From Candidatus Woesebacteria bacterium RIFCSPHIGHO2_01_FULL_39_23 (GTDB taxonomy: Bacteria; Patescibacteriota; Microgenomatia; UBA8517): a stretch of DNA of 64,000 bases. The notes below the pieces were generated by a model, which was not told the origin of the DNA, did no database searches, and saw only the letters and a list, made by a program, of their open reading frames with translations. Of this stretch, positions 16,329 to 63,906 are shown piece after piece; position 1 is the stretch's first letter, and each line of letters begins with the position of its first letter. The DNA is taken from the NCBI GenBank assembly GCA_001792305.1, contig MGGH01000023.1, forward strand, positions 34,347-98,346, given 5' to 3'. The translations under genes were made by a program, and so were the position numbers.

Positions 16329-16345
16329 AATTTAAAAGTCAGCGA

Positions 16346-17023
16346 TTAGTGACTTGTGGTTAGTATTTCTTTGATTATCTCAAAGGTTTCTGGTGAGTTT
16401 ATAATATTCAAGTGGCCTGCAACGTCGATTTTAACGTTCTTCGCCCCTTTGAGGACTAAACTACTATTCGGAATGACAACTTCGTCAAGTCTAGGATAAA
16501 GGTTTGTAAACATTTTATTTACTCTAACCTTTCGGTCAAGATTTTTTATAAGCTTTGAAGAAGGGACAATTTCACCAAGGTTAAATATATTTACATAGCC
16601 TGAATAAGTTCCCTTATAGGGAGAGGAAATGCTAATTACTTTGGAAACGCGGTTTGAATACTTCGAATTTATCAGAAAATATTTAGTTATAACACCACCT
16701 TTGCTATGACTTATTATAAGAGAGTCTTTAATTGCATTTTCGTTAATATAGTTTTCAAGTATTTCCGAGCATTTTTTAATTTTGGCGGTGTTATTTCCTA
16801 ACTTTTTTAGAACATGCACCCTGTATCCAAGACCATTAATAAAATTTCCTATTTTGATTAGGTATGACCAGGTTCCACCAAAACCTTGTACTAAAATGAC
16901 ATTGCCTTCCTTTCCATAAGACCATTTTTCTGGTGGTGTTCGAATAATAAAATTACTAAGTTTTGCAATTGGGTGAGTTAGAATATCCAAAATTATTTCC
17001 AAGGTGGTTTTTAAAATTCTCAT
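16346..17023 (-). CDS. Lipase-like alpha/beta hydrolase (DUF676/PGAP1-like)
   Basis: GxSxG elbow ISHSKGG. About 225 aa. Confidence 0.5.
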   Translation of the reverse strand: MRILKTTLEIILDILTHPIAKLSNFIIRTPPEKWSYGKEGNVILVQGFGGTWSYLIKIGNFINGLGYRVHVLKKLGNNTAKIKKCSEILENYINENAIKDSLIISHSKGGVITKYFLINSKYSNRVSKVISISSPYKGTYSGYVNIFNLGEIVPSSKLIKNLDRKVRVNKMFTNLYPRLDEVVIPNSSLVLKGAKNVKIDVAGHLNIINSPETFEIIKEILTTSH

Positions 17024-17026
17024 AGT

Positions 17027-17995
17027 TTATAAAGAAGTCTTAGTAAGACTAAACTTAGCTTTAGTTCTTAAAACTAGCCAACGGATTTTTTCAGCAATTC
17101 TATAAAGATGATAAAGGGGGTGTGCTACTAAATCCCAACTTCCTAAAAACTCAATAACCTGTGGGTTATATCCCTCTTTAAATTTTGTAAATCCCTTTCC
17201 AGGCTCCCTTCCCCAAAGGTCAAAAATCTTATAACCCCGGCGCTTGCCAAATCTAATTGCCTCCCACATCATAAGGTTATTTGTCATGACATTTTTGTAT
17301 TTGTCGGAACTGGCACCGTATGGGTAGTAAAGAATTTTGTCGTAGGTAAACAAAATCCAGGTTGTGATAATTTCACTTTTATATTTAGCAACCAGAAGAT
17401 GAGCTAGGGGTGATCGGTGTTCGGTGATCGGTGTTCGGTGAAGGTGCTTCCACATAAGGCGGTGATATTCTGGTGTGTGAGCATAAAAACCTTGTCTTTT
17501 AGCTGTCTCAAAAGTCAGTTCCAAATATTTTTCAAATGCTTTATTTGAGTTATCCTCAATCACTTTTACTCCGTGTTTTTGGGCAAGACGGATGTTGTAG
17601 CGGGTTTTACCGGAAAAACTTTTCAGGAGTTCGTCTTCTGGTTTTGTTAAGTCGATTCGGAAAGTTGTAGGAGTAAATAAAGTTTTACCAGGGACAGCGT
17701 TGTTTTTTTTGAATAAATGAATTATTGAATTATTGACCTCACTTTTTATAATATTTGGTTCCAATTTTATAAATATTAGATTTTTTTCTTTAGCAATCTT
17801 TTTTAGAAAAACAAGCATTTCTTGTGTTGGTTTTGGCCCTTTGATAAACATGCCAATTTTCCATGGCGTAAAAGGGATTTTATGAAGAGTAATTACGCCA
17901 TATTTGGTTTCCAAAACCTCATTTCCCCATTCTTGTCGAAACTGCGCCCACTCGTGAGATTGTAAGGGGTGTTTTGGCTCTCTTGTTTTTACCAT
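17027..17995 (-). CDS. FemAB-family peptidyltransferase-like protein
   Basis: Homologous to 15507..16328. The N-terminus is MVKTREPKHPLQSHEWAQFRQEWG. Confidence 0.55.
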   Translation of the reverse strand: MVKTREPKHPLQSHEWAQFRQEWGNEVLETKYGVITLHKIPFTPWKIGMFIKGPKPTQEMLVFLKKIAKEKNLIFIKLEPNIIKSEVNNSIIHLFKKNNAVPGKTLFTPTTFRIDLTKPEDELLKSFSGKTRYNIRLAQKHGVKVIEDNSNKAFEKYLELTFETAKRQGFYAHTPEYHRLMWKHLHRTPITEHRSPLAHLLVAKYKSEIITTWILFTYDKILYYPYGASSDKYKNVMTNNLMMWEAIRFGKRRGYKIFDLWGREPGKGFTKFKEGYNPQVIEFLGSWDLVAHPLYHLYRIAEKIRWLVLRTKAKFSLTKTSL

Positions 17996-19505: not shown

Positions 19506-21351
19506 TTATTCAAAATTGTACTCTGTTATTCTTTTTTTAATGTAGCCGTTATCAGTTTCGATTAACTCCTCCGGAATATCAGTCAAAAACCGGCTGGGGG
19601 GATTTGAGGACGTTTGGCCGAAATAAAGACGGCGGGAGGCGTAAGTTAGATAAAGAATTTCTTTTGCGCGAGTGATACCTACATATGCGAGCCGCCTTTC
19701 TTCTTCCATCCCGTCTTGTTCCCATAAAGATTGTGCATGTGGGAAAAGTCCCTCTTCCATACCGATAATAAATACAACTTTAAATTCCAGTCCTTTTGAA
19801 GCATGTAATGTCATTAGGGTAACAGCATCTTTATTTTTTTCGCCATTTAATGGATCATCTGGCAGATATTCTTGTTGAACAAGTGCGACGTTTTCCAAAA
19901 AGTCGTGGATTTTGGGAAACTCGCTAGCAACGGACCTGAGCTCTTTGATGTTTTCAAGGCGCGCATAGTCTTCGGTTGATTCAGGATTAAATTTTTCTAA
20001 ATATCTTGTGATACTCACCACTTCGTCCATCAGCTCAAGGGTGGTTTTGGCGTTTAAAGGTTTAATTTTTACAGAGTATTTTTTAAACTCATCAAATCTT
20101 CTTTTACCGATTTTTTCTACCCGCTTGGTTGAAACATGATCTTTGGGGTTAACAAGCAGTCGTAAATAGGAAAGTACGTCCTTTATTTCGGCCCGCTCGT
20201 AAAATTTCACACCACCAACCAGTACGTAAGGAATTCCTGCGTGCAAAAAAGCTTCTTCCAAAACTCGTGATTGGGCATTAGTCCTGTATAAAATTGCTAT
20301 GTCTTTATAGCTTAAATTATTTTTTAAAATTTCATTGATTATATATGTCGCTTCTTCCGACCCGCTTCTGGCAGAATAGATTTTTATTTTTGGTCCGCCC
20401 TTTTTCTTTGTCCAAAGTTTCAAGACCGGGTGAGTTGTATTTTTTGAAATAACACTGTTTGCCGCAAGCAGAATGACTTCTGAAGACCTGTAATTTTCCT
20501 CAAGATTGACAATTTTGATACCTGGAAAGTCATTAATTAAATTTGCAATGTTTCGGAAATCTGCGCCTCTCCATGAATATATTGATTGGCTTGCATCGCC
20601 TACGGCAGTTATATTCTTGTTTTTTGATACAAGCAATTTGGTGAGCAAGTATTGTATTTTGTTTGTATCCTGCCATTCATCCACTAAAACATAAGTGAGC
20701 CTATTTTCCCATTTATTTAAAGTAGGCGGATCATTTTTTAGAAGATCGACTGTGTGCAGTAGAAGGTCATTAAAATCCAGTGCGTCGGCTTTTTTGAGAG
20801 CTTTTTCGTATTCAAGATAAATTTTGAAAGTTTTTTCCTGCATTGGTGTTTTTGCGATCTCCGCATACATAAGGGGGGTCAACATTTGGTTCTTCGCCGA
20901 ATCTATGGAGGAAAGAACCGATCCGGGACTCACGGATTTATCCGAAATATTTAAGACTTTTATAATGTCTTTTATTAAGTCCTTTTGATCTTGTGTGTCA
21001 TATATGATGAAGTTTCTGTTTATTCCTATTTTTTCCCCGTCTATGCGAAGCAGCCGTGCGCAAAAAGAGTGGAAAGTTCCCGTAAAAAATGGAAAGGTGC
21101 CGGTAATTTTTTCTACTCTTTCTTTCATTTCCCCCGCAGCTTTGTTAGTGAAAGTTAGAAGTAACAAGTTTTCTGGTCTTGCCCATTTTTGCGAAAGCAC
21201 ATATGCGGCTCTTTGTGTTAGTACCCTTGTCTTGCCGCTTCCAGCACCAGCGAGGACCAGTAGTGGTCCACTGCCGTAACTTACAGCTTCTTGTTGTGCA
21301 GTATTGAGTTGATCTAAAATAGATTTCGTTATACGTTTTTGATTGTAACAT
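19506..21351 (-). CDS. UvrD/PcrA/Rep-family SF1 helicase. The N-terminal ~50 codons, including Walker A, are reachable only through a 1-nt frameshift in a T5/A5 run at 21336-21340.
   Basis: The track ORF 19506..21200 starts at LLLLTFTNKAAGEM, which is helicase motif Ia. The same frame continues upstream through GPLLVLAGAGSGKTRVLTQRAAYV to a stop at 21360-21362 with no start codon. An ATG at 21351-21349 lies in the +1 frame (MLQSK...). Deleting one A joins them as MLQSKRITKSILDQLNTAQQEAVSYGSGPLLVLAGAGSGKT. Confidence 0.7.
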
Positions 21352-22405
21352 GGCGAGATCTAAATTTTTCTTTACAAAATTCAAGCGAAAATTTTTGAGC
21401 CACTTGTGGTTGGCAAGGATTATAATTATTTTGGGGGTGTTGTGTGTGGTGTTCCTGGGTGTTGTCGGGATTGCCTCGGTTGTTAAGAAGACCCCGCTTT
21501 CAGACTATATCGATATTGTGACTGCTTTTGTGTTTTCACCAAAAGACAAAGTGAAAAATTTTGACGGTAGGACAAATATTTTGATTCTTGGCAAGGGTGG
21601 TGAAGGCCACGAGGCACCAGATCTTACCGACACCTTAGTTTTAGCCTCAGTCGATTTTGATAAAAATGCAGTTTCGTTTCTATCTATTCCTAGAGACATT
21701 TGGATAGAGTCTTTGAGGATTAAGTTGAATAGTGCTTATTATTGGGGAAACGAAAGACAAGAAAATGGAGGACTGATTCTTGCTAAATCATCTGTCGAGG
21801 AAATCATTGGTTCACCAGTGCACTACGCCGTGGTTATTGACTTTGTTTTATTTAAGGATTTGATTGACGAGGTGGGTGGAATAGAAGTGGACGTGGAGGA
21901 TTCGTTTGTGGATCATCGATATCCCATTCCTGGGCGGGAAAATGATGAGTGTGACGATGATCCTAAGTTTTTGTGTAGATATGAAACAATCGAGTTTAGG
22001 AAAGGCTTGCAATTTATGGATGGTGATACTGCTCTAAAATTTGTCCGTTCAAGAAATGCCGAAGGGGACGAGGGGACGGATATTGCAAGATCCAAGAGGC
22101 AGCAGAAGGTGATTTTGTCTTTAAAAAACGAAATTCTAAGCTGGAACATTATTTTCTCATTCAATAAGTTGTCGAACATAAAAGAATTGGTGGGATCAAG
22201 GACGGAAACAGATATGGATACAATTGCGTCGGTAATTGTTGCAAGGAAGATTTTTGACGCGAGAAATAACTTTAGGACTTTAAGCATTCCCGAAGAATTC
22301 TTGGAGGTAGCGCCAAAGTCTCCCGACTTCGACAATCTTTACGTATTCATACCGAGTGCTGGTAATTGGATGGAACTTCAAAGGTGGATAAAAAGCAATA
22401 TCTGA
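21350..22405 (+). CDS. LytR-CpsA-Psr (LCP) family cell-envelope polymer transferase
   Basis: N-terminal TM helix, then DTLVLASVD...SIPRD, the LCP signature. Confidence 0.75.
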   Translation: MARSKFFFTKFKRKFLSHLWLARIIIILGVLCVVFLGVVGIASVVKKTPLSDYIDIVTAFVFSPKDKVKNFDGRTNILILGKGGEGHEAPDLTDTLVLASVDFDKNAVSFLSIPRDIWIESLRIKLNSAYYWGNERQENGGLILAKSSVEEIIGSPVHYAVVIDFVLFKDLIDEVGGIEVDVEDSFVDHRYPIPGRENDECDDDPKFLCRYETIEFRKGLQFMDGDTALKFVRSRNAEGDEGTDIARSKRQQKVILSLKNEILSWNIIFSFNKLSNIKELVGSRTETDMDTIASVIVARKIFDARNNFRTLSIPEEFLEVAPKSPDFDNLYVFIPSAGNWMELQRWIKSNI

Positions 22406-23880
22406 TTTTAGCAGTAGTTTGTTTACTTTACCTTATTTTCCGATTAGGGTGGCAAGATACTATTGAGTTTGGATATGACCAGCCGCTGTTGGCTTCTAAG
22501 GTTATTGAATTTTTTAAAAACCCTAACTGGATTGAAAGTTATGAATTTGTTGGGACAAATCCCTGGGGGTTTCCATCTTGGGGGCCGATGCAACTCTTTT
22601 TCTGGGTCCCTTTTATTTTGATGTCCCGAGACCCAATAATTCTTTCCTTGTCGGCTGCGGTTTTTAATATGTTAAGTATTATCCTTATTTTCATAATCGG
22701 GAAAAGATATTTTTCTTTGAAAGTTGCTGTTTTTTCCTCACTTTTTCTGGCTATTCACCCTTGGTGGGTGGTTTTCTCGAGAATGATTTATGAACCTACG
22801 CCCGTGCCCACTATTATTGCTTTTTCAATACTCTTAAGTTTTTATGTTTTTGAGAAAAAGAAAACTTCAGTGGTTGTGTTGCTTATTATTTCATGGGCAG
22901 CTCTTATACAAATATATATTCATACGTTTTCTTTTGTGGTGACAAGTGTTTTGTTTTTACTCGCCAGCATAAAGAAAACTTCCAAAAAGTACATGGTCCT
23001 TGGATTTTTATTATCACTCCTCCTTTTTCTGCCTGTTTTTCATTACTACGTCAAATATCCTGATCGTAGTCTTGATCTATTAAAGGTTTTGGAAGAATTT
23101 AACAAGGGGGATTTGGAGTCAGGGCATTCCACTCGAGACGTTTTACCCGAATTTTTAAAGACAATTTCAGGAGATGGATTCGAATGGCAACTTGGCTATG
23201 CATATCCCGAGTTTCAGAAAGAATTGAAAATTGCTGCCCCTGCTATTTTAGCCACAATTACAACATTGGCCGTATTAATCTATGGTTTTATCAGCGTTTT
23301 CGAAAAAGGTTACGGAAAACATAAAACAATACTTCTTTTATTGTGGACTCTGGCTCCGGTCTGGTTTCTCTTTTTGATAAATACGCCCATTGCACTTCCG
23401 CGCTACTTTTTAATGAGTTTGCCACCTTTATCAATTCTTTTTGGCTTAGCAGTCGAGAAGTTTTATACCAAAGTAAAATATTTTACTTTGATTGCCGCTC
23501 TTTTTGTGTTATTTTGGTGGCTGGTGTTTAATGCTATTTATTTATCGTTTATAGGGAATTACAAATACCCGAGCGGCTTTTTGAGTCATTATTCGGATGT
23601 CCCTTATCTGTTTTTAAAAGATGCGGTATTGTGGATTATTGAGGATTCAGCAAAGAAAGGATACATTGAGTTTACCATTAGTAACGATATTAATAAACCC
23701 TACGAGTTCAGCCTAAATGCAGCAACAGAATATGTTTTGAAGTATGTTTACGAAATAGAATTTAGAGATGCTGGAAGTATGAATATTGGACATTATTTGT
23801 TGATTTATTCGAACGAATCTATTGACGTAACTGTTCTAAAACAATTTGGTCCTTATATAGTAGCTTACCCAAAAATATAG
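22366..23880 (+). CDS. GT-C fold membrane glycosyltransferase (ArnT/PMT_2-like)
   Basis: 504 aa, polytopic, with the general ArnT/PMT_2 architecture. Confidence 0.45.
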   Translation: MDGTSKVDKKQYLILAVVCLLYLIFRLGWQDTIEFGYDQPLLASKVIEFFKNPNWIESYEFVGTNPWGFPSWGPMQLFFWVPFILMSRDPIILSLSAAVFNMLSIILIFIIGKRYFSLKVAVFSSLFLAIHPWWVVFSRMIYEPTPVPTIIAFSILLSFYVFEKKKTSVVVLLIISWAALIQIYIHTFSFVVTSVLFLLASIKKTSKKYMVLGFLLSLLLFLPVFHYYVKYPDRSLDLLKVLEEFNKGDLESGHSTRDVLPEFLKTISGDGFEWQLGYAYPEFQKELKIAAPAILATITTLAVLIYGFISVFEKGYGKHKTILLLLWTLAPVWFLFLINTPIALPRYFLMSLPPLSILFGLAVEKFYTKVKYFTLIAALFVLFWWLVFNAIYLSFIGNYKYPSGFLSHYSDVPYLFLKDAVLWIIEDSAKKGYIEFTISNDINKPYEFSLNAATEYVLKYVYEIEFRDAGSMNIGHYLLIYSNESIDVTVLKQFGPYIVAYPKI

Positions 23881-23881
23881 T

Positions 23882-24943
23882 TTAGAAAGCCCATCTTCCA
23901 AGGTAGAAAGCGTTGGTATAAAAAATTAGAAGGATAGAGGACAATAATACCCAAACGACTTTAAATAGCTTATATTTCAAAAGTAACTGGAGAATTATAA
24001 GGAAGGGAAACATAGATAAAATATATCTCGGGGCACTTAGTATAAATCCCGTGGAGGTAAAAAGCAGAGTACTCAAAAACATAAAAATAAAATAAGCAAA
24101 GTTAATATTGGATCTTTTAAATAGTGTTAATAGACTAAAAATCCAAGCTAAGAAAGACGAAAGACCCTCGAAAAGACCTGCTGTGACCCTTTGATAGGTA
24201 TCCCAGTCGAAGTGGGTCATTAGTTTAAAGCTTTTAGTAATTCCTTCCCAGGGCAATGCAAAAGACTTTTGCCAGTAGTTTTTAAGAAAAAGTGAGAAGG
24301 AAAAAGGATCCTGGTTCAATTTGAAATTTAAGTATAAATAATAAATCGGGAAAATTAATCCCGGCAAGACATAAATCAATTTACTAATATTTTTTGTCTT
24401 AAGAAGGAGATAAAGAATTGCCGGAAAGATAAATATTCCCGTTGGTCTTGTAATCGATGCCAAGCCTGCAAATAAAAAACCCAACAAAAAATTACTTTTT
24501 CTGGCAAAATAAAAAGAAACCGCTGTCAAAAACAAAAAAAGTGATTCCGGATACCCGGCTGAAAAAAAGTATGAGGTGGGAAAAAGCGAAATTAAGATTA
24601 CAACTTCTTTTGAAAACTTCTCTTCGTAATCAATTTTAAGTAACTTATATAAAATTAGACTACCTAGGATAAAGAAAATGTTTGATACAAAAAAGGCGAT
24701 GGTCTCCGTTTGCAGTCCCAAAAAACTAAAAAATCTCAAAATAGTTGGAAACAAAGGTAGAAAAACTATAAACTCGCTACCGACGAGGTTTTGTGGGACA
24801 TAACCGTTTTCGGCTATAAATCTATAGCTATTTCCGTCCCATCTCTCACCCAGAGTCGATATTACAAACTCACCATTTATGAAAAATAGCGAGACAAAGA
24901 GCACAAGCCTTGTTGATATTAAAAATATTAATAACTTACCCAT
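23882..24943 (-). CDS. GT-C membrane mannosyltransferase-like protein (PIG-V/GT87-like)
   Basis: GERWDGNSYRFIAENGY matches the WD..Y..IA..GY motif of PIG-V-type GT-C enzymes. Polytopic. Confidence 0.45.
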   Translation of the reverse strand: MGKLLIFLISTRLVLFVSLFFINGEFVISTLGERWDGNSYRFIAENGYVPQNLVGSEFIVFLPLFPTILRFFSFLGLQTETIAFFVSNIFFILGSLILYKLLKIDYEEKFSKEVVILISLFPTSYFFSAGYPESLFLFLTAVSFYFARKSNFLLGFLFAGLASITRPTGIFIFPAILYLLLKTKNISKLIYVLPGLIFPIYYLYLNFKLNQDPFSFSLFLKNYWQKSFALPWEGITKSFKLMTHFDWDTYQRVTAGLFEGLSSFLAWIFSLLTLFKRSNINFAYFIFMFLSTLLFTSTGFILSAPRYILSMFPFLIILQLLLKYKLFKVVWVLLSSILLIFYTNAFYLGRWAF

Positions 24944-26082
24944 CCGAATTTATTTATCCAAAGAACTCCCCAAAAGTTAACTCCAACCGAAATGAAAAGT
25001 AGTAGCCAATGGTGCCACTTAAGGTCAGTCTTTGTAACATTTTTAATTATTAGAAAGATTAGGAAAGGGTAAAAGTCTACCGCAAAACGGTAGCCGAATT
25101 GAGCAAAGCCTGTGGTGCCGTGCATAAAAACAACAGATGCTATTGCCAAAATTGTCAGCCAGAAAGGCACGGCCCATTTTTGTCTAATAGTTTTTATTGA
25201 ATAAATGAAAGCGGGTGTGGTGATCCAGATGGCCATACCTGACCAGGACGGTTGAATGTAGGGGAAAGTGTTTTTAATAACAGGGAGTCCTTTAAATATA
25301 ACTTCCAAATGCCTGCCAATGTATGAGGGGTGAAATAAACCGTTTTGGTACCATGGTTCCTCGAAAATTTCAGGGATAAGTAGATATCCTTTATCCCAAA
25401 TGACTCCAAACCGGGCATAGTTATACAAAGAATTAAACATTAGAAACGGCAGAAAGCCAACTACAATCTGAAAAACATCTTTAAGAAAGGAACTCTTTCT
25501 GTCCTTTGCGATAAGATAAATAAATAAAGGCAGTGCGAGGACTGTGTGGATTCTTGATAGATACGAGGCACCAAGAAATGTTCCAATTATTAGCCCTCTT
25601 TTTTTACCCGCTACCTCAAGGAGTGCAAACAACATGAAAAACATCGCGGATATTTGTCCCAGATACCACGACGATCCAACTGATGAAAGAAACCAAACAA
25701 CACTTCCAAGCCCAACTAAAGTACCTGACCAAAAGGCAACTTTGTAGTTGCTTTTGATTCTCAATGCAAGCTTGACTGTTAATAAGACTATACCTGCACC
25801 CATCAGGTGGGCTAGAATTTGCTGAGGAAAATCCTTTCCAAAAATGGCGACAAAGGGAAGAGAAGCTATAGCTGGCATTGGCGGATAAACGATGTAAAAT
25901 TTGTTTGAGCCGCCTGGAACCAATTCGGACAGCCAGGGTGGATTTTCGGCTATCCAAAACTGTCCATTTAGAAAAGCAGCTGAAAGTCTCGTAAAATAGT
26001 TATAGGGAGTGTTACCTACTGGTCCGAACAATTTATAAATGACAAAAGTAAGTATAAAAATCGGCAAGAAAAGTTTTTTCAT
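24928..26082 (-). CDS. GT-C fold membrane glycosyltransferase (ArnT-like)
   Basis: 384 aa, polytopic. Its start overlaps the start of the divergent gene at 26039 by 44 nt. Confidence 0.4.
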   Translation of the reverse strand: MKKLFLPIFILTFVIYKLFGPVGNTPYNYFTRLSAAFLNGQFWIAENPPWLSELVPGGSNKFYIVYPPMPAIASLPFVAIFGKDFPQQILAHLMGAGIVLLTVKLALRIKSNYKVAFWSGTLVGLGSVVWFLSSVGSSWYLGQISAMFFMLFALLEVAGKKRGLIIGTFLGASYLSRIHTVLALPLFIYLIAKDRKSSFLKDVFQIVVGFLPFLMFNSLYNYARFGVIWDKGYLLIPEIFEEPWYQNGLFHPSYIGRHLEVIFKGLPVIKNTFPYIQPSWSGMAIWITTPAFIYSIKTIRQKWAVPFWLTILAIASVVFMHGTTGFAQFGYRFAVDFYPFLIFLIIKNVTKTDLKWHHWLLLFISVGVNFWGVLWINKFGWVSY

Positions 26083-28537
26083 TAGTAATATTTTACTATT
26101 AATTTTTGCTGCGTTTATAATCCGGATTTTATTATCACCATTTGGTACCTTGGATCTTGACCAAAATACATTTATTGCCTGGAGTAATATTTTAACCGAA
26201 GGTGGTTTTAAAAGCTTTTATAATAGCTGGTCGGATTATCTTCCAGGATACCTTTATGTTTTGTGGTTTTTGGCTAAAATTGGAAATCTCCTGCCCATTC
26301 CAACGGAAGTGCTGTTTAAACTTCCCGCGCTTATTTCCGATCTTGCCACAGGCTACTTAATTTACCATATTGTAATGAGATTAAAAGGTGAAAAGCTAGG
26401 GTTTGTTGCCGCGTCAATTTTTTTGTTTAACCCTGCAGTATTGTCTAATTCTAGCCTCTGGGGTCAGATAGATAGTCTTACCTCTTTATTTTCTCTTCTT
26501 TCGATTTTATTTTTTGGAAAAAATATTTACCTTTCGGCTTTTTTCTTGTCGTTTGGGTTTATGGTTAAACCCCAAGCTGCATTAGCAGCACCTGTTATTT
26601 TGTTTTTAATGGCTAAAAATAGGTTTGCTGCGAAAAATTTTTTTCTTTTTTCAGCTTTAGTTTTAATATTTTTGACTCTGGGATTTTTGCCCTTTTTCTC
26701 GGGCGGGAACTTAGCTGAATTTATTATTCAAAGGGTAAAGATGACTTTGGGTCAATATCCGTATAGTTCGATTAATGCTTTCAACTTTTGGGGTTTGCGT
26801 GGTTTTTGGAAAAGCGAAGGTGAGGGGATATTCACAACAGGTTTTTGGGGCTTGCTTTTTTCGGGTTTTGTCGGTTTGGTCTCCATTTTCAAGCTTGTGC
26901 GATCTAAAAAACCAGGAGGAGAGTACTACTTAGCTGCGATACTTTTTATATCTAATTTTTTGTTTTTCAGCCGAATGCACGAGAGGCATCTTATGCCCTC
27001 ATTTGCCTATCTTGCTATTGTCTCCGTTCTTGACTGGAGAATTGTTTTTTCATACATCGCTCTTTCTTTTACCTATATTATGAATACAATATATTCTTAT
27101 ACATGGATAGTCGAAGACTTTAAGGAAATTTTTACAGGTGATTTAGTAAAAGTTTTTATTATTGGAAACCTGCTGGTTTTTGGTAACCTGATTCTGCAAG
27201 GTTTTAAGAAAAAAAGCGATCAATTTCCAAGTTTTAATATATCTACTCCCTTCCGGAAAAAACCAGTTGATATTAAATTTGGCGATATAGCCAAAAATAC
27301 GGCTTCAAAGCTGGTGCTTCTTATTCTTTTGTTTTCCGCCATAACAAGAATATTTTATCTTCACCAACCGCAAAAAGAGTATTTTGATGAAGTCTATCAC
27401 GCCTTTACGGCGAGGCAGATGCTCTCTGGTAATACTTTTGCCTGGGAGTGGTGGAATCCTCATCCCGAAGGCTTTGCTTACGAGTGGACACATCCGCCTA
27501 TGGCAAAGCTAATTATGGCAGCCGGGATGTACATTTTTGGCGTGAATCAGCTTGGTTGGAGATTGCCTGGAGCGATCTTTGGTGTGCTTGCAACACTTCT
27601 AATTTTTTTGATCTCAAAGTCAATTTTTAGAAACAGGAGTATTGCAGTACTTAGTGCATTCATTTTTTCACTGGAGGGCCTACCTCTGGTCATGAGCAGA
27701 ATAGGGATGAATGATATTTACTTTCTTACTTTTATGTTGCTCTCAATTTACCTTTTCATTAAGACCAAAAATTTTGCGTCAAGTATTTCTTTGGGGCTCG
27801 CTGCCGCCTCAAAATGGAGCACACTGTGGGCTTTACCTATTTTTCTAATCATACACTTTGCCTTGAAGAAAAAAATTAGGCTGTCTTACTTGTGGTTTTT
27901 GGTGATGCCGGTTTTGGTTTATCTGTTATCTTATTCGCCAATATTTTTAAGTCCAAAAATTCAGAGAGAATATGTTGAAAACACTGGTTACCAAAGAAAC
28001 ATTGACGAAAAGATCGGAATTATTCCTTTGGATATGTTTATTGATACACAGAAGCAAATGTGGTGGTATCACACTAATTTAAAAGCAACTCATCCTTTCA
28101 CTTCTCCATGGTGGAGCTGGCCGTTTTTAAGCCGTCCAGTGTGGGTTTATACTGGAAGCGAAGAGGGTGGTGTAGTAAGTAATATTTATATAATGGGTGA
28201 TCCTCTTGTGTTTTGGTTTGGTATTGTTTCTATTATCGCATGTGGATATTACGCTTTGAGTGAAAGAAATAAAAAGCTCGGGCTAATTGTTTTTTCGTAC
28301 GTTATCTTTTTTGCTCCCTGGGCAGCATCCCCTAGAATTATGTTTTTGTACCATTATCTTCCATCTGTACCGTTTATGGTAATTGCCATAAGCTATGTAC
28401 TTAAAAGAAATTCAAAGTATTTAGTCCCTGTTTTAATAGTATTTGTTTTAAGTTTTATCTATTTTTACCCGCGTTTCTCCGGTATCCCAGTACCACCCCA
28501 ACTAAATGAATCATACAGATGGTTTGATGGTTGGTAA
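26039..28537 (+). CDS. Two-module GT-C protein: an N-terminal GT-C (DUF2029-like) domain fused to a C-terminal PMT/GT39-like protein O-mannosyltransferase domain
   Basis: The C-terminal half has YFDEVYHAFTARQ...WTHPPMAKLIMAAGM, the PMT/GT39 DE..H / HPP.AK signature. The N-terminal half is a separate 10+ TM GT-C-like module. Confidence 0.55.
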   Translation: MTKVSIKIGKKSFFISNILLLIFAAFIIRILLSPFGTLDLDQNTFIAWSNILTEGGFKSFYNSWSDYLPGYLYVLWFLAKIGNLLPIPTEVLFKLPALISDLATGYLIYHIVMRLKGEKLGFVAASIFLFNPAVLSNSSLWGQIDSLTSLFSLLSILFFGKNIYLSAFFLSFGFMVKPQAALAAPVILFLMAKNRFAAKNFFLFSALVLIFLTLGFLPFFSGGNLAEFIIQRVKMTLGQYPYSSINAFNFWGLRGFWKSEGEGIFTTGFWGLLFSGFVGLVSIFKLVRSKKPGGEYYLAAILFISNFLFFSRMHERHLMPSFAYLAIVSVLDWRIVFSYIALSFTYIMNTIYSYTWIVEDFKEIFTGDLVKVFIIGNLLVFGNLILQGFKKKSDQFPSFNISTPFRKKPVDIKFGDIAKNTASKLVLLILLFSAITRIFYLHQPQKEYFDEVYHAFTARQMLSGNTFAWEWWNPHPEGFAYEWTHPPMAKLIMAAGMYIFGVNQLGWRLPGAIFGVLATLLIFLISKSIFRNRSIAVLSAFIFSLEGLPLVMSRIGMNDIYFLTFMLLSIYLFIKTKNFASSISLGLAAASKWSTLWALPIFLIIHFALKKKIRLSYLWFLVMPVLVYLLSYSPIFLSPKIQREYVENTGYQRNIDEKIGIIPLDMFIDTQKQMWWYHTNLKATHPFTSPWWSWPFLSRPVWVYTGSEEGGVVSNIYIMGDPLVFWFGIVSIIACGYYALSERNKKLGLIVFSYVIFFAPWAASPRIMFLYHYLPSVPFMVIAISYVLKRNSKYLVPVLIVFVLSFIYFYPRFSGIPVPPQLNESYRWFDGW

Positions 28538-28541
28538 AAGT

Positions 28542-29063
28542 TTACAAGACTAGTGCAATTGCAAAGATGAGAAGTAATCCTCCAAGGCCTATGCCGACCA
28601 AGGTTGGTAAACCGACTCCCGCTTGAGGCAATTCTGGTTGACTGGTTGGGCTTTGGGATGGCGCACTTGTACTCGGTGTTGATGTCGAGCTACTTGTAGG
28701 AGTTGATGTTGACGAACTCGTTGGTGTTGCGGTTGATGAACCGGTGGGTGTACTTGTTGGTGTGTCTGTAGGTGTACTCGTCGGCGTGCCAGTTGGTGTC
28801 GCAGTTGGCGAACTGGTGGATGTACCTGTCGGTGTAGGAGTAGCAATTGTAAATGTCAATTTTGTACAAGATCCGTATTCACACGGAGTTGATGTTGGCG
28901 AGCCTGTTTCCGCATGGGGCTCGCTGGATGGTGCAGTGGGTGCAACAGGCACGCTACGGAGTTGATAAAGCCTTATAGCAGTAAAAATTGCAACACCAGC
29001 CAAGACAATAGTTGCAATTGTGATCGCGAAAGTCAATCCGTTTTTCTTTATAAAGTCCTTCAT
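28542..29063 (-). CDS. Pro/Thr/Ser-rich (mucin-like) cell-surface protein with an N-terminal TM helix and a C-terminal LPQAG-plus-hydrophobic tail
   Basis: About 100 aa of (S/T)PT repeats (TPTGTSTSSPTATPTGTPTSTPTDTPTSTPT...), then ELPQAGVGLPTLVGIGLGGLLLIFAIALVL. Confidence 0.6.
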   Translation of the reverse strand: MKDFIKKNGLTFAITIATIVLAGVAIFTAIRLYQLRSVPVAPTAPSSEPHAETGSPTSTPCEYGSCTKLTFTIATPTPTGTSTSSPTATPTGTPTSTPTDTPTSTPTGSSTATPTSSSTSTPTSSSTSTPSTSAPSQSPTSQPELPQAGVGLPTLVGIGLGGLLLIFAIALVL

Positions 29064-29084: not shown

Positions 29085-30764
29085 CTACATCCACTGATCT
29101 AATTCATTATGATGAACTTGTGCGTTAACTTCAAAGCTATATGTATTGTCTGGCACTTCATATGAATAGTAAAATTCCTCGCTTCCGGGCTTTTTACTGG
29201 TTACTTCTGTATCCCAAGTGTTTGAATTTACTCTAAATCTGGCTTTATCTATAGTTCCCGAAGATGTGGTGCCCAAAACAGTGAAGTACACTTTATCTCC
29301 TTTTTTAAGATTCGAAAGATCAGCGCTTGTCAGAGCTTCCCAATTTGAAGGATCAGTTACACTTCCCGTAACCGAGTAAGCTTTGATGTCCACACATTGA
29401 GCGTTAATGCAGGTAATTGGGGTAGCCGTAGGTGTTGGAGTCGCTTCCTGCTTTTTAACACAAACATTGAAATTCGAACTGTCTCCGCCGTTATCAAAAA
29501 TCATCTGGGTTGCAGTTTTATCCAACTTCTGGGAAGCCCATTTATTACCACCCGTTACTGTTAAACTTATGCCGTTTATTGACCACGGTTGCTCTCCTGA
29601 TTTGGGGTCGTTATCAAAAATCAAAGCTGTGTCGAGAAGCACAGAACTTGGAAAGTCGACAGTGATCTTTTTACAATATTGTGCCAAGAGTACCCCGTTT
29701 TTGGAGATTACAGTACATGATCCTTGCTGTGAACTTATTGTGCCTCCCTGGGCAACAGTACCCCCAACACGCAGTTGTTGTCCTAAATTAGAGAATAACA
29801 ATTCAGTACCAGATGGGCAGGAAAGATTTGGAGTCGAAGTTGGAGTCGGTGACGGTGTACCACAGTTGGATGGGTAATGCTCTCCTTTTATTCTACCTTG
29901 GCCTGACACATCTATATACATAAGTGTTACATTGGGCGTTAGATCTCCTTGCCAGTTCTGACTTGCAGATTCACCTGGGCCAAGACTAAATTCCTTTTTA
30001 AAGTAGGGGTCAAACTGTTCAAATATACCGCTTATTTTATGATTATCATTGTCATCATTGTCATTATTATTATCATCATCGTCATCATCCGATGTGTTTT
30101 TAATAAAAGCTCCGCTGCAATCTATCCGCGTCTCGTATTTAGGAGGTTTTGGAGTTTCTTTCGGTCCGTAAGTTCCACTGTCGCTGCAATCTTTAGAGCC
30201 AATTACTTGCCAGCTAAAACCGTTGTCAGGGACAGAAACGTTACCTAAAGTTGATTCTTCGTCTGATTTCAAATTTGGTACATCAAAAGTAGCGACCTCA
30301 ACTGAATTTATAAAAACTTTAGCTTTTTGCAGTGGCTCGTCCATACTAGAGTCATTTTTGACAGTAACAACCCCGTCTTGACTGACCCTGAAATTATATT
30401 TTTCGCAGTCCCAGGCGCTTGTGCGAAACTGGGTGGGCTGGCGTACAAGAACAACCCCAGCGCCAACACCAAGGACCAATAGTGCTATTCCAAGAATTGT
30501 CGCAATTATCCTTCCACTTGAACTACGACTACGCCCACCGGAGGTGGAGCCTGAGCCCTCGGCAATTACTGTGTGATTGTCAATAAGTGGAGGCGACTCT
30601 TCAATTGGGATATTGGGTTTAGACAAAGGTGTTACCGTACCTTGGCTTTGGCTTAAGGTTTTGTCAGCTGGTTGGGTCGGGTTACTTTGGGGTAGTGGGG
30701 GTGGAGCCATAAAATCAGCGCCATTCTGATTCTGATCACTTGGACTTGTTATTTTTGGGTCCAT
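29085..30764 (-). CDS. Large surface-anchored hypothetical protein with an Asp/Asn-rich tract
   Basis: Pro-rich N-terminus, one TM helix (IIATILGIALLVLGVGAGVVLV), an extracellular body, and DDDDDNNNDNDDNDN. Confidence 0.5.
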   Translation of the reverse strand: MDPKITSPSDQNQNGADFMAPPPLPQSNPTQPADKTLSQSQGTVTPLSKPNIPIEESPPLIDNHTVIAEGSGSTSGGRSRSSSGRIIATILGIALLVLGVGAGVVLVRQPTQFRTSAWDCEKYNFRVSQDGVVTVKNDSSMDEPLQKAKVFINSVEVATFDVPNLKSDEESTLGNVSVPDNGFSWQVIGSKDCSDSGTYGPKETPKPPKYETRIDCSGAFIKNTSDDDDDDNNNDNDDNDNHKISGIFEQFDPYFKKEFSLGPGESASQNWQGDLTPNVTLMYIDVSGQGRIKGEHYPSNCGTPSPTPTSTPNLSCPSGTELLFSNLGQQLRVGGTVAQGGTISSQQGSCTVISKNGVLLAQYCKKITVDFPSSVLLDTALIFDNDPKSGEQPWSINGISLTVTGGNKWASQKLDKTATQMIFDNGGDSSNFNVCVKKQEATPTPTATPITCINAQCVDIKAYSVTGSVTDPSNWEALTSADLSNLKKGDKVYFTVLGTTSSGTIDKARFRVNSNTWDTEVTSKKPGSEEFYYSYEVPDNTYSFEVNAQVHHNELDQWM

Positions 30765-31816
30765 TATTCTCTTATCTTTCTACCCACATAAACACCTATT
30801 AAAAATAGGCTTACTCCCATGATAGGGGCGACAAAAACTGGTGTCAAGTCGCTTAAAGTTTTATTTTTACTACTGGAATCTGTTTTTGAGGGTGTTATTA
30901 ATGTATAAGAGTTATCGCTGGTTGTAAGCTTTTCGAAAACAGGCTCTGTTGTGGGAGTTGTTGTTGACTCGGGTATCTCCAAAGTCTCAATTTCGTTGTC
31001 CGAGTTCTCGACGGAAAACCCTGAAGGTTGGGTTTCATTTTTTGAAAGATCAATTTTTGCTCTTGTGATTTCGAGTGTTGGCGAAGTCGATTTGTCCCTA
31101 AAATCTTGTGCTTTACCAATGACAATGGGTGGAATTGGGTTTGCATTGCCGGTGTAGAAAACGGCTGAGGCAATTCCATCGCTACCTGTGTGGACAAAGA
31201 CTTCAAGTGTCCTTCTGGAACCGATGTCAAAATATGAAAGTAGATCTTGTTTTCTTGATATAGATAAGGGAATAAACCAGTTACCATTATCGGTGGTAAT
31301 AGTCGAAAGAGGGCTAATATTTTCTCCAGACAAAAGAACCAAGGCCTTTGATACTGGAGCGCCGTTTTCGTTAATGACAGATCCCGATATTATCTCGGTA
31401 TGTTTGGGTGGGGGAAGCGGGGGGGCAGTTTTTACTTCCCAAGATTTCCCGGCGCTATCGAATTCAATGTCTCCTGAAACTATTTTAAATGAGTACATGG
31501 TGTCTGGCGACAAATTGTTGATGGTGATAAAATGCACCATTTCAAATGTAGGAGGGTTGTTTCCTGTTACATTTTCCAACGTATTTTCTTTTCCCCAAAC
31601 CAAAAACCCGCTGGTTTTTGCGTTAGTTAACCATGACACTGTGAAAGAGCTGTCTGTGATGTTTGTGATCCTTATATCTTGTGCGGTGACACCCTCGCCT
31701 ACTTTAGTAGTATAGCCTTGAAGATATTTAATAAGGAGCGCTATCCCTACAAAAGTAACGAACATGATTGGTAACGCCAAAATAGTTGGGATTTTAAATG
31801 GCCCTTTCTTTTTCAT
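30764..31816 (-). CDS. Surface protein with FN3-like and carboxypeptidase-regulatory-like domains, TM helices at both ends
   Basis: ITDSSFTVSWLT is FN3-like. ISGSVINENGAPVSKALVLL is CarbPepD_reg-like. N- and C-terminal hydrophobic helices. Confidence 0.45.
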   Translation of the reverse strand: MKKKGPFKIPTILALPIMFVTFVGIALLIKYLQGYTTKVGEGVTAQDIRITNITDSSFTVSWLTNAKTSGFLVWGKENTLENVTGNNPPTFEMVHFITINNLSPDTMYSFKIVSGDIEFDSAGKSWEVKTAPPLPPPKHTEIISGSVINENGAPVSKALVLLSGENISPLSTITTDNGNWFIPLSISRKQDLLSYFDIGSRRTLEVFVHTGSDGIASAVFYTGNANPIPPIVIGKAQDFRDKSTSPTLEITRAKIDLSKNETQPSGFSVENSDNEIETLEIPESTTTPTTEPVFEKLTTSDNSYTLITPSKTDSSSKNKTLSDLTPVFVAPIMGVSLFLIGVYVGRKIRE

Positions 31817-31822
31817 TAGTAG

Positions 31823-32116
31823 TTAGGATACCTCCGTGTTTTCCTGCTCTTCTGTTGTTGGTGGTTCAGGAGTTGGTTTTGGTTGTGGTTTGAAGACATT
31901 AAGCTCATCTTCGTTTAGGTAAACTCTTTTTTCAAGCTTGTCAAGTAATAAGGTATCTAAAGTCGGATTAAGTGACTCGAGAACCTGGGGCGGTACATCC
32001 GGCTCCGGCTTGGATATTACAATTCTAACAACTTCGAATCCCACCCAAAGAATTGTTGTGATAAGCGTTAGTGCCATAATTGTGACAAGCCCTGGCACTT
32101 TTATTCTTTTTCTCAT
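31823..32116 (-). CDS. Small bitopic membrane protein with a Pro-rich tail
   Basis: 97 aa with one TM helix. Overlaps the upstream PilO-like gene by 4 nt. Confidence 0.35.
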   Translation of the reverse strand: MRKRIKVPGLVTIMALTLITTILWVGFEVVRIVISKPEPDVPPQVLESLNPTLDTLLLDKLEKRVYLNEDELNVFKPQPKPTPEPPTTEEQENTEVS

Positions 32117-32784
32117 TCTTTTACCCCTTCTCCCTCAAATGCTACGCGGCCTTTTAGCATCAAAGATCTTGTGCTACCCTCGTCAGTTTCGATCAGAATT
32201 AAATTTGTTTCGTCTATCCAGATTGGTCTTCGAAGATTTTCGATATTCTCAAGAAAAGCGATTAGTTGGGAATAGTTACCATTAGCTGAGCTTGAGAATG
32301 AAAATCCACTAGACCCGGGTGGAAGTTCTTCAAGCTCTTCGGTTTTTGATTTCTGGACCGGCTTCTGGGCCCCTTTTATTGTGGTTTCCTCGATTTTGAG
32401 GTTGGTGAGAAGCACATTGCTTTTTAACGATATTGATTCGATTTGTCTCACATATTTTTCAACCTCTGTGTTTTTAGGAACACTGTCATCGAGAAGCAGA
32501 ATCCTGTCGATTTGTTGATTATAAAGATTTTGCGCCTGGTCAAGGTTATCTCTTTTTCTTTTGAGAGTTTCTAAAGTTTCTTCTTTGGTGCTGATATCTT
32601 TAAGTATATGGGTGATGGTAATAATTGTTGGTCTTAAAGCAAAGGCCACAAAAAAAGTTATTGTTGCCAGAGATAGGATTATTTCTAAGAATGCTTTAAC
32701 ATCGTCTCTGTTTTTGTATACTGCAAAGAGATTCGAGAAATAGCGCTGGTATCTTACGTAGTCCTTTCGCCAGCCTACAGCCAT
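32113..32784 (-). CDS. pilO: Type IV pilus assembly protein PilO-like
   Basis: Bitopic with a coiled-coil periplasmic domain. Immediately follows pilN with adjacent stop and start. Confidence 0.45.
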   Translation of the reverse strand: MAVGWRKDYVRYQRYFSNLFAVYKNRDDVKAFLEIILSLATITFFVAFALRPTIITITHILKDISTKEETLETLKRKRDNLDQAQNLYNQQIDRILLLDDSVPKNTEVEKYVRQIESISLKSNVLLTNLKIEETTIKGAQKPVQKSKTEELEELPPGSSGFSFSSSANGNYSQLIAFLENIENLRRPIWIDETNLILIETDEGSTRSLMLKGRVAFEGEGVKE

Positions 32785-33345
32785 TTAAATGTTTTCCTCC
32801 TTTTTAATTTTTGAACTGATTGAAAAATCTATAAATGGAGACTCTTGCTTGGATGATATTTGTGTAAGGTTAATCTCTGTTAATTTGCTTGTGGAGTTCA
32901 GATTTGAAATAAACTGGGCGATTGATTGCTCTGTAAAACTTGAGCCCTGGATGTCGATTTCCCCTCTTGATATTGAAATACTTTTAAGCAGAATATCTGA
33001 TGGGAGGTATGGTGTAATATAGTTCTTGATTGTATCGGAATGTAGGGGACTTGTGGTAAATTGTGCAAACACTCCCAGTCTTTTTTGTGTATTCCTGAAA
33101 ACCGCTTCGAAATCACTGTAGGATTCAACTATTTCTCTTTCGTTATCTACCTCGTCTGTTAAGTCGTTTGATTTTATATCAAGCCAAAACCTAGATAAAA
33201 AAGCAATGATGACTATCATTTCGGTCAGGATAACAATCATTCTGAAGGTAGAAAGCACCCAAGCTAGAACACGGCCGGTTGTTGATGCGGCAAATTGTTC
33301 TTGGGGGAGTAAGTTTATTTCTTTGTTTTTTTTACGAGCAGCCAT
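32785..33345 (-). CDS. pilN: Type IV pilus assembly protein PilN
   Basis: Conserved N-terminal INLLP motif (KEINLLPQE) followed by a TM helix. Confidence 0.55.
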   Translation of the reverse strand: MAARKKNKEINLLPQEQFAASTTGRVLAWVLSTFRMIVILTEMIVIIAFLSRFWLDIKSNDLTDEVDNEREIVESYSDFEAVFRNTQKRLGVFAQFTTSPLHSDTIKNYITPYLPSDILLKSISISRGEIDIQGSSFTEQSIAQFISNLNSTSKLTEINLTQISSKQESPFIDFSISSKIKKEENI

Positions 33346-57976: not shown

Positions 57977-58025
57977 TTTATACCAAAAATACCTTAATCT
58001 GCATTAGAAATAGCATTTTTGGGGA

Positions 58026-63216: not shown

Positions 63217-63906
63217 ATGCGTAAAACACTCTCGAGGATTACATCTTTCGTAATGGGTATTGTAGGGATTTTTATTCTAACTTCCACGCTATTTCCTATT
63301 CTTTCTTATGAATTTTCCTCGTTGGATTCTTTTTCCAACTACCTGTCACCAGTGCCAGAAAAGGACCTAACCGTAATTGAAAAAAGTGGCGATGACCTGA
63401 CTCTTGCTAGTAACTGGTTTGAAGGAGGAGCTAAAAAGGAAGATTTTACTAAGTTGGGCAACATTGACTATTATACATTGTCAATTCCCAAGTTTAAAAT
63501 CGAAAATGCCAAGGTATCGGTTGGAGGAGAGGACTTATCGGAGAATCTCATTCAATACCCAGGCACCGCCTTGCCTGGGAGAATGGGTAATACCGTCATT
63601 TTTGGCCATTCTATCTTACCGCAATTTTTCAACCCTAAAAACTATTTGTCGATCTTTTCTCGCTTGCCAGAGTTAAAAAAGAATGACGAGATAGAGATTT
63701 ATTATGACGGAATATCATATCTTTACAGGGTTGTTGACTTGGTTGAGGTTTACCCAGATGACATTGAAGTACTGGAGCAGCGATGGGGAGATTCTTATTT
63801 AAGCCTTGTTACTTGTGTCCCGCCTGGAGATCCCAGAAAGCCAAGAAGGTTAGTGGTTCGGGCAAAAATTGTCCCACCAGGCGAGGAAACTTTAAGCAAA
63901 ATTTAA
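63217..63906 (+). CDS. Sortase (class E-like transpeptidase)
   Basis: N-terminal TM helix, catalytic His in VIFGHS, catalytic Cys in LSLVTCVPPG (TLxTC-type), and a downstream Arg. Confidence 0.75.
   Translation: MRKTLSRITSFVMGIVGIFILTSTLFPILSYEFSSLDSFSNYLSPVPEKDLTVIEKSGDDLTLASNWFEGGAKKEDFTKLGNIDYYTLSIPKFKIENAKVSVGGEDLSENLIQYPGTALPGRMGNTVIFGHSILPQFFNPKNYLSIFSRLPELKKNDEIEIYYDGISYLYRVVDLVEVYPDDIEVLEQRWGDSYLSLVTCVPPGDPRKPRRLVVRAKIVPPGEETLSKI

Follow-up and report, generated by a model that had tools for sequence, protein, structure and literature searches.

Organization of the locus

The subject of this study is a cluster of membrane glycosyltransferase genes on contig MGGH01000023.1 of Candidatus Woesebacteria bacterium RIFCSPHIGHO2_01_FULL_39_23, a groundwater member of the candidate phyla radiation (CPR; GenBank assembly GCA_001792305.1), in which the gene for an 832-residue fusion of two GT-C modules lies between a gene for a LytR-CpsA-Psr (LCP) phosphotransferase and a gene for a Pro/Thr-rich (PT-rich) surface protein, and which is a candidate system for the O-glycosylation of surface proteins. 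The window is the whole 64,000-nucleotide stretch that was analysed (positions 34,347 to 98,346 of the contig, forward strand), and all coordinates given without the name of another locus are window positions. The proteins of the window were scored against the Pfam models (at the gathering cut-offs) and the NCBIfam models, and were compared by tblastn with 78 genome loci; the survey of conservation covered 77 related loci of Woesebacteria/Microgenomates. The central genes and modules are listed below, each bit score being followed by the cut-off of the model.

21350..22405, plus strand: LCP phosphotransferase, 351 residues (PF03816, E = 2.9e-29; TIGR00350, 94.6 bits, cut-off 62.3)
22366..23880, plus strand: GTCA, accessory GT-C of the PMT_2 (ArnT/PMT superfamily) type, 504 residues (PF13231, 33.8 bits, cut-off 26.1)
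23882..24943, minus strand: GTCB, accessory PIG-V/Gpi18-like GT-C, 353 residues (PF04188, 24.4 bits, cut-off 22.4)
24928..26082, minus strand: GTCC, membrane protein of the GT-C_A fold, 384 residues (no match in Pfam)
26039..28537, plus strand: whole fusion protein, 832 residues, two GT-C modules
26039..27205, plus strand: N-module of the fusion protein, residues 1–389, GT-C_B class, ALG3/ALG6/PIG-M/PimE-like
27257..28537, plus strand: C-module of the fusion protein, residues ~407–832, PMT family (GT39 type), without an MIR domain (PF02366, PF13231, PF16192)
28542..29063, minus strand: PT-rich surface protein, 173 residues (N-terminal transmembrane (TM) segment, repeats, LPQAG-x3-PT motif, C-terminal TM segment)

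The six genes are those named, at the same positions, in the original prediction made from the bare sequence, and their order is as described there; they do not form the single consecutive run that it envisaged, as both strands are used and four transcription units can be distinguished, namely LCP–GTCA on the plus strand, GTCC–GTCB on the minus strand, the fusion gene on the plus strand and a unit running from pilN to the PT-rich gene on the minus strand. The PT-rich gene ends 4 nt from the stop codon of the fusion gene, the two genes being convergent. At positions 26039–26082 the first 44 nt are common to the fusion gene on the plus strand and the GTCC gene on the minus strand (MTKVSIKIGKKSFFI and MKKLFLPIFILTFVI, respectively). 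An overlap of 38–44 nt between the 5' ends of these two genes was observed in 13 of the 29 loci in which they abut (in alignments reaching residues 1–3 of both proteins), so that this antiparallel coding overlap appears to be conserved. The LCP protein has a single N-terminal TM segment (residues 24–42) in addition to its LCP domain and is thus provided with a membrane anchor.

The PMT-family module of the fusion protein

Judging by its sequence, the C-terminal half of the fusion protein is a genuine PMT-family (GT39-type) module that carries all four residues essential in the Mycobacterium tuberculosis enzyme. Residues ~407–832 match PMT (PF02366) with 53.2 bits (cut-off 22.7) and PMT_4TMC (PF16192) with 71.1 bits (cut-off 32.4), while PMT_2 (PF13231) also scores above its cut-off on the same half (55.4 bits); matches to both PMT and PMT_4TMC were found in all 40 of 40 homologues of the fusion protein. 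A profile of this module built from 41 homologues matched only PMTs in the PDB, the first being 9i5k (E = 6e-16), followed by Pmt1 (6p25) and Pmt4 (9e61). The predicted DE..H and HPPMAK motifs are present as FDEVYH (residues 449–454) and THPPMAK (residues 484–490). In pairwise alignment with ScPmt1, F449-D450-E451-V452 is aligned to the FDEV motif of the first external loop (EL1) containing Asp77 and Glu78, R508 pairs with Arg138, D559 with Asp189 of loop EL2, and R766 and F769 with Arg649 and Phe652 of the Rx2[Y/F] motif of loop EL5. In MtPMT, in which the DE motif is Asp74/Glu75, the residues Asp74, Asp176, Arg441 and Tyr444 are each essential, and have been equated with Asp77, Asp189, Arg649 and Phe652 of ScPmt1 (PMC12331936). 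Among the 41 aligned sequences, conservation of D450/E451, R508, D559 and R766/F769 is 90% or higher. No match to the MIR domain was found in the fusion protein in the Pfam scan, and the loop between the predicted TM segments 613–631 and 716–734 comprises ~84 residues, as in bacterial PMTs.

Assignment to the ArnT/lipid A (GT83) enzymes or to the arabinan enzymes was rejected, as the PMT-specific domains and PDB matches dominate and the ArnT equivalog model gives only 22.8 bits against a cut-off of 567. The PMT/GT39-like character that had been predicted for this half therefore holds, as shown by the Pfam and PDB matches and the aligned residues; orthology with actinobacterial Pmt does not, since the corresponding NCBIfam equivalog NF058602 scores 86 bits against a cut-off of 800, and the fusion protein is rather a distant member of the PMT family. 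The PMT domain is already annotated automatically in public records, in which the fusion protein is called 'glycosyltransferase family 39 protein' or 'dolichyl-phosphate-mannose-protein mannosyltransferase'.

The GT-C_B module and the linker

The N-terminal half of the fusion protein has the GT-C_B membrane fold. The prediction of a GT-C module joined to a PMT-like domain is thus borne out. An ArnT-like assignment of this half is not supported, the GT-C_B enzymes being the better structural matches. Sequence identity to ALG3, ALG6, PIG-M and PimE (GT87) is only 12–19%, and no Pfam match was found for the window copy, even at E values up to 1; among 40 fusion homologues, the N-terminal halves of eight match GT87 (PF09594) and those of 13 match Mannosyl_trans4 (PF15971, 'DolP-mannose mannosyltransferase'), which we take to be a family built around AglS. 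Stand-alone paralogues of the N-module also exist: there are two in locus L069, and the one that was scanned against Pfam matches GT87 with 29.1 bits (cut-off 25). After the first TM segment, Asp66 (in WSDY) is invariant and Asp41 nearly so, and these are candidates for the catalytic acidic residue of the first external loop.

The linker between the modules (residues 383–416) is rich in Lys/Arg, with seven such residues, which suggests that it is cytoplasmic and that the PMT module begins on the cytoplasmic side. PMTs have a cytoplasmic N-terminus. The fusion is a single open reading frame (ORF) in 74 of 76 loci, whereas in L076 a separate N-module gene lies directly upstream of a separate PMT gene, and adjacent separate genes are likewise found in 13 loci of a second lineage (lineage 2) described below; this persistent association argues for functional coupling of the two modules.

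Accessory glycosyltransferases and the variable cassette

The PIG-V-like GT-C recognized earlier by its WDGNSYRFIAENGY motif is GTCB, although its match to Mannosyl_trans2 (PF04188) is marginal and spans only profile positions 60–214 of 443. GTCB also weakly matches the NCBIfam families AZOBR_p60025 and LA_3751/2, and both GTCB and GTCC weakly match NCBIfam families for 'cell surface glycopolymer formation'. GTCC had been described as ArnT-like, which its sequence does not support; its structure, predicted using database homologues, is matched better by structures other than ArnT, and its sequence profile found no match in the PDB.

Between the LCP and fusion genes of other loci lies a variable cassette of 0–3 genes, mostly of the GT-C type, and in several loci the LCP gene is directly beside the fusion gene. 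By family, the cassette ORFs of the other loci comprise 42 GTCC-like, 13 GTCB-like, four TMEM260-like/PMT_2, two GTCA-like and one YfhO; further members are GT87-type GT-Cs, other PMT_2 proteins and a family of ~630-residue membrane proteins (15 ORFs) with only a sub-threshold match to DUF2298. By tblastn, GTCB was found in 23 loci. Because the content of the cassette varies, the conserved core is LCP and the fusion protein (with GTCC), and GTCA and GTCB are accessory. The proposal that all four GT-Cs and the LCP protein make up one dedicated pathway is not upheld on this point, GTCA accounting for three and GTCB for 14 of the cassette ORFs when those of the window are included. Small response-regulator receiver genes (130–155 residues; PF00072, E = 8e-19) were observed within the cassette of seven loci (L035:6388–6837, L039, L048, L050, L057, L063 and L068).

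The PT-rich protein, its operon and the sortase

The mucin-like (S/T)PT-repeat protein predicted beside the fusion gene was confirmed, with 64 Ser/Thr and 22 Pro among its 173 residues. Pro, Thr and Ser make up 71% of residues 41–150, with a peak of 96% in a 25-residue window; the (S/T)PT repeats span ~110 residues, and the LPQAG-x3-PT motif is encoded at 28617–28631. The further genes of its strand and the sortase gene are as follows.

29085..30764, minus strand: g559, membrane-anchored surface protein with PT linkers (TM segment at residues 89–107; conserved C-terminal domain of ~95 residues)
30764..31816, minus strand: fn3-domain membrane protein, 350 residues (PF00041, 30.4 bits, cut-off 25; TM segment at each end)
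31823..32116, minus strand: g97, TM protein of 97 residues in the pilN operon
32113..32784, minus strand: pilO-like gene (PF04350 PilO, 22.3 bits, cut-off 22)
32785..33345, minus strand: pilN, head of the operon (PF05137 PilN, 43.4 bits, cut-off 22.8)
63217..63906, plus strand: sortase, 229 residues (PF04203; TIGR01076, 46.7 bits, cut-off 39.35)

With spacings of -4 to +22 nt, pilN, the pilO-like gene, g97, the fn3 gene, g559 and the PT-rich gene form one operon. A g559-like gene accompanies the PT-rich gene in every case, and its product carries the C-terminal consensus ...EFYDEYTIPxGxTxFxIxAQIHHxxLGWF; tandem duplication of this pair was observed in five loci (L040, L044, L048, L050 and L058), and in L047 (5796–7858) an extra pair is located upstream of the fusion gene. 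The possibility that g97 is a type IV pilin was dropped, as the G/FTLxE prepilin motif is lacking.

In members of the PT-rich family an N-terminal TM segment precedes a PT-rich region, in many cases with a small Cys motif, and the C-terminal sequence is highly conserved: L-P-x-[A/S]-G-[T/V/I]-x-x-P-T-[I/L/V]-x-G and then a hydrophobic helix, with which the protein terminates. The LPx[AS]G-x3-PT motif is located 29 residues from the C-terminus in 53 of 59 members, and a basic tail is absent, with Lys or Arg in the last six residues of 0 of 59. When this C-terminal signal was compared with the NCBIfam and Pfam models, no anchor model matched and only low-complexity noise was obtained, so that LPx[AS]G-x3-PT followed by a TM segment may be an undescribed sorting signal of the Microgenomates. 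A sortase-type signal is plausible, while not canonical, and the PT-rich protein is both a candidate acceptor for glycosylation and a candidate sortase-type substrate. The sortase retains a His/Cys/Arg triad in the motifs GHSI, LVTCVP and RLVVR and is possibly the enzyme that processes the LPx[AS]G signal, at a distance of 34 kb from the locus. The 723-residue product of the gene upstream of it (61042–63213) was considered as its substrate and set aside, as it has no recognizable C-terminal sorting signal.

The presence in one organism of an LCP protein, a protein with a sorting signal and a sortase, together with the co-occurrence of the LCP and PT-rich genes around the fusion gene in most Woesebacteria loci, recalls Actinomyces oris, in which LcpA glycosylates a sortase substrate (PMC6381275). 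By analogy with LcpA–GspA–SrtA, the LCP protein could place a glycan linked to lipid pyrophosphate on the sorted PT-rich protein before the action of sortase, with the GT-Cs remodelling the glycan. We consider this very unlikely as the main activity of the locus: it leaves an intact PMT catalytic module unexplained, the signal is without the basic tail seen in canonical sortase substrates, the sortase gene is remote and no genes for cytoplasmic glycan assembly are found nearby.

Conservation across related genomes

The gene order is conserved as FemAB, FemAB, PcrA, LCP (plus), cassette, fusion (plus) and PT-rich (minus) on the left, continuing on the right from PT-rich with g559 (minus), fn3 (minus), g97, PilO-like, PilN (minus), S20, MurJ (plus) and HrcA–GrpE–DnaK. 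In loci with sufficient flanking sequence, an LCP gene lies within 5.5 kb upstream of the fusion gene in 57 of 61, and on the downstream side, within 4 kb, 58 of 61 have a minus-strand ORF encoding the C-terminal motif, with a median gap of 43 nt; the fn3 gene is syntenic in 62 loci. More than 1000 homologues of the fusion protein were found, and since the same arrangement is seen in more than 70 species-level genomes the clustering is not due to chance. Within Woesebacteria, no assignment to lipid A or arabinan families was obtained and the PT-rich gene accompanies the fusion gene, as the original prediction required on both counts.

The closest relative of the fusion protein (70% identity) is encoded by Woesebacteria RIFCSPHIGHO2_02_FULL_42_20, and others are found in metagenome-assembled genomes (MAGs) of Candidatus Woesebacteria/Microgenomates; an identical 832-residue protein is encoded on the Joint Genome Institute (JGI) contig 3300002502 C687J35174_10000312 and on several other metagenome contigs. 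Third Party Annotation (TPA) MAG records labelled 'uncultured Gammaproteobacteria' or 'Pseudomonadales' (L006, L008, L009 and many others) also carry the whole Woesebacteria-type block, and because this syntenic block is complete these records are evidently mislabelled taxonomically.

Proposed function

From these features we infer an extracytoplasmic system dependent on polyprenol-phosphate sugars; the best-supported reading, to which we give about even chances, is O-glycosylation of Pro/Thr/Ser-rich segments in secreted and surface proteins. MtPMT transfers mannose from polyprenol-phosphate-mannose to Ser/Thr of proteins undergoing Sec translocation, and the bacterial PMT prefers Pro-rich Ser/Thr sites, its first mannose being extended by other transferases including PimE (PMC12331936). 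Like actinobacterial Pmt, the C-module (GT-C_A) would transfer the first hexose, probably mannose but perhaps another sugar, from a polyprenol-phosphate-hexose donor to Ser/Thr of a translocating protein. The N-module (GT-C_B), which shares the fold of ALG3, PIG-M and PimE, would then add the next sugar or sugars. ALG3, PIG-M and PimE extend glycans from dolichol-phosphate (Dol-P) or polyprenol-phosphate sugars. The fusion protein would accordingly be a bifunctional initiator–elongator, combining in one polypeptide the roles that are split between mycobacterial Pmt and PimE. Further extension or branching of the glycan would fall to GTCC and to those GT-Cs that vary with lineage (GTCA and GTCB in the window), in which case its structure would not be the same in all lineages. 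The PT-rich LPx[AS]G-sorted protein, g559 and the fn3 protein are among the likely acceptors. The LCP protein may have a separate role in attaching a wall glycopolymer to peptidoglycan; alternatively, the sorted protein may be its substrate, as in A. oris.

Arguments against the proposal and alternative explanations

A number of observations weigh against protein O-glycosylation, the first of them concerning the link to the acceptor. The PT-rich gene, which is convergent with the fusion gene, closes the pilN/pilO operon; synteny is just as strong for PcrA, MurJ and HrcA as for the PT-rich gene, whose adjacency to the fusion gene may therefore reflect general colinearity. In L053 (10412–18412) a segment from HrcA/DnaK to the pilN operon is inverted with a breakpoint exactly between the fusion gene and the PT-rich pair, and the pair stays with the pilN operon, apart from the fusion gene. 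In lineage 2, which comprises 14 loci recovered from metagenome contigs in a scan that used the split PMT gene of L076 as query, an LCP gene or a PT-rich or motif-bearing ORF is found within 8 kb in 0 of 14. The genome context of this lineage differs, with neighbours resembling HU, RecA, RecX and a permease (judged by eye from C-terminal sequences only), yet the GT-C cluster is kept, with the two modules encoded by adjacent genes, other multi-TM genes and, in half of the loci, a divergent GTCC-like gene. Since the cluster persists there without LCP and PT-rich genes, the robust functional unit is the GT-C cluster itself, and its links to the LCP gene and to the PT-rich gene are suggestive. The earlier idea of a dedicated pathway with its acceptor next door is accordingly supported only in part, by the frequency of the PT-rich neighbour in Woesebacteria, and weakened by the convergent orientation, the membership of the pilN/pilO operon and lineage 2.

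The same observations (colinearity of the whole PcrA–HrcA block across Woesebacteria, convergence, the inversion in L053 and the absence of a PT-rich neighbour in lineage 2) are what would be expected if the adjacency were coincidental, the fusion protein being a general O-glycosyltransferase of the secretome or acting on pilus or PilN–PilO components and the PT-rich protein an unrelated stalk. We regard this as quite unlikely, given that a second PT-rich pair is inserted upstream of the fusion gene in L047, that the bacterial PMT prefers just such Pro-rich Ser/Thr sequences (PMC12331936) and that the neighbour is kept in divergent loci. In a third, more divergent group (L131 and L149) the PMT module stands alone within PcrA/PilN synteny, the LCP gene is kept upstream and a convergent gene for a PT-rich protein with a C-terminal TM segment directly follows the PMT gene; L067 (38% identity) likewise retains LCP and a convergent PT-rich neighbour.

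The enzymes themselves supply a second group of contrary points. The fusion protein is far below the cut-off for actinobacterial Pmt, as described above; the relatives of the N-module with solved structures (ALG3, ALG6, PIG-M and PimE) all use lipid-linked rather than protein-bound acceptors; and YfhO- and PMT_2-type GT-Cs are present in the cassette. Characterized relatives of these, such as those of the Bacillus CsbB/YfhO system, glycosylate teichoic acids. The third group concerns the donor: the look-up of ppm1/dpm1 that had been suggested gave no ppm1-, dpm1- or GtrB-like GT2 (PF00535 type) among the precomputed Pfam matches of genes in the window and its flanks, and no GDP-mannose genes or flippase were found in the 64-kb window. 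The only GT2s seen are two of the large membrane Glyco_trans_2_3 type, one at 7267–8853 and one just before the start of the window on the contig. Finally, searches of the literature for PMT/GT-C enzymes in Patescibacteria/Woesebacteria, or for the biochemistry of CPR bacteria, returned nothing relevant. What makes the proposed reading uncertain is that the tie to the acceptor is one of synteny and that the window yielded no gene for synthesis of the donor.

The main alternative, doubtful but to be taken seriously, is that the GT-Cs synthesize or decorate, outside the membrane, a wall glycopolymer (such as a mannan, lipomannan or teichoic-acid-like polymer) from polyprenol-phosphate-sugar donors, as mycobacterial GT-Cs do for lipomannan and lipoarabinomannan (LM/LAM) and arabinogalactan, that the LCP protein ligates it to peptidoglycan and that the PT-rich gene is a bystander. 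An LCP gene upstream in nearly all Woesebacteria loci would suit this model, as would the lipid-linked acceptors of the N-module relatives, the YfhO-, PMT_2-, PIG-V- and GT87-type GT-Cs of the cassette, the weak glycopolymer-family matches of GTCB and GTCC, and the lineage-2 cluster without a PT-rich neighbour. It also finds support in the surroundings: the neighbourhood is peptidoglycan-themed, with two FemAB genes and MurJ, and is conserved as such across Woesebacteria. It is opposed by the PMT-specific 4TMC domain, the full PMT catalytic set and the exclusively PMT matches of the C-module in the PDB, and by the absence from the window of TagO/WecA-like genes for a primer of a polymer linked to lipid pyrophosphate and of exporter genes. 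Moreover, the LCP gene is equally absent from lineage 2, and its association with the GT-Cs is thus no closer than that of the PT-rich gene.

The flanking genes in the window are two FemAB-family paralogues (15507–17995, minus strand) and a MurJ equivalog (33813–35540, plus strand; 241.6 bits, cut-off 235.55). At 6284–8853 (minus strand) a large membrane GT2 (528 residues, 7267–8853; Glyco_tranf_2_3, with a weak CelA-like match) is followed by a GH26-like (mannanase family) gene, a pair reminiscent of exopolysaccharide synthase operons. Elsewhere in the window there are a PIN/MazE-type toxin–antitoxin pair (57602–58307, minus strand) and two tandem YdjC-family genes (52941–54520, plus strand).

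Implications

Returning to protein O-glycosylation, a broader version is possible and is offered tentatively, as something we would not expect to hold in full: a lineage-wide surface-protein O-glycosylation machine of an undescribed kind in Woesebacteria/Microgenomates, consisting of a PMT initiator–GT-C_B elongator fusion, a fast-evolving GT-C cassette that diversifies the glycan between species, and PT-rich stalk substrates that bear a new sorting signal and form part of a PilN/PilO-associated envelope apparatus. The locus is a concrete and widely conserved target, with named catalytic residues (D450, D559 and R766) and a defined candidate acceptor whose sorting signal is unusual, and a natural initiator–elongator fusion could show how PMT and GT-C_B enzymes cooperate. 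The hypervariable GT-C cassette suggests a lineage-specific surface glycan; if the proposal is correct, the glycan coat would do much to determine the surface that these ultra-small, probably host-dependent cells show to hosts and phages. Should the enzymes decorate a wall polymer and the adjacency reflect no more than synteny, the locus would be an ordinary, still uncharacterized envelope locus and would matter less.

Comparison with known systems

To our knowledge, PMT protein O-mannosylation in bacteria has been established experimentally only for Actinobacteria. A 2024 study of Saccharibacteria pili describes glycosylation in CPR bacteria as "unexplored" (PMC11623550). The GT-C_B–PMT fusion, the variable cassette and the LPx[AS]G-x3-PT signal are absent from the literature results mentioned above, in which none of them was searched for by name.

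Like the present organism, A. oris, with its LcpA–GspA–SrtA system, combines an LCP protein, a sortase and a protein whose C-terminal signal is LPXTG-like (PMC6381275), whereas here the signal is LPx[AS]G-x3-PT without a basic tail, GT-C/PMT enzymes dominate and the sortase is distant. The GtrA/GtrB/Gtr* and CsbB/YfhO systems likewise use extracytoplasmic GT-Cs with a polyprenol-phosphate-sugar donor and a lineage-variable repertoire, and the cassette includes YfhO and PMT_2 members. These systems decorate O-antigen or teichoic acids and encode a GT2 and a flippase beside the GT-C; no such GT2 or flippase genes were found at the Woesebacteria locus.

Whereas ALG3, ALG6, PIG-M (GPI-MT-I) and PimE (GT87) act on lipid-linked acceptors, the Woesebacteria N-module is tethered to a PMT. 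A precedent for a lipid-phosphate-mannose-dependent membrane enzyme that extends a protein-bound glycan is AglS of Haloferax volcanii, a Dol-P-mannose mannosyltransferase (PMC3871713), which differs in being archaeal, in acting on an N-glycan and in being a stand-alone protein. A further close parallel is the actinobacterial system of Ppm1, Pmt (Rv1002c/MtPMT) and PimE, which has a PMT-type GT-C without an MIR domain and with a conserved catalytic set, likely acceptors with Pro-rich Ser/Thr segments and an associated enzyme of the PimE (GT-C_B) class. The Woesebacteria system differs from it in the score of 86 against 800 bits, in the lack of a Ppm1 in the window, in being known from sequence in a CPR host, in its variable GT-C cassette and in that the putative initiator and elongator are fused in a single protein of 832 residues.

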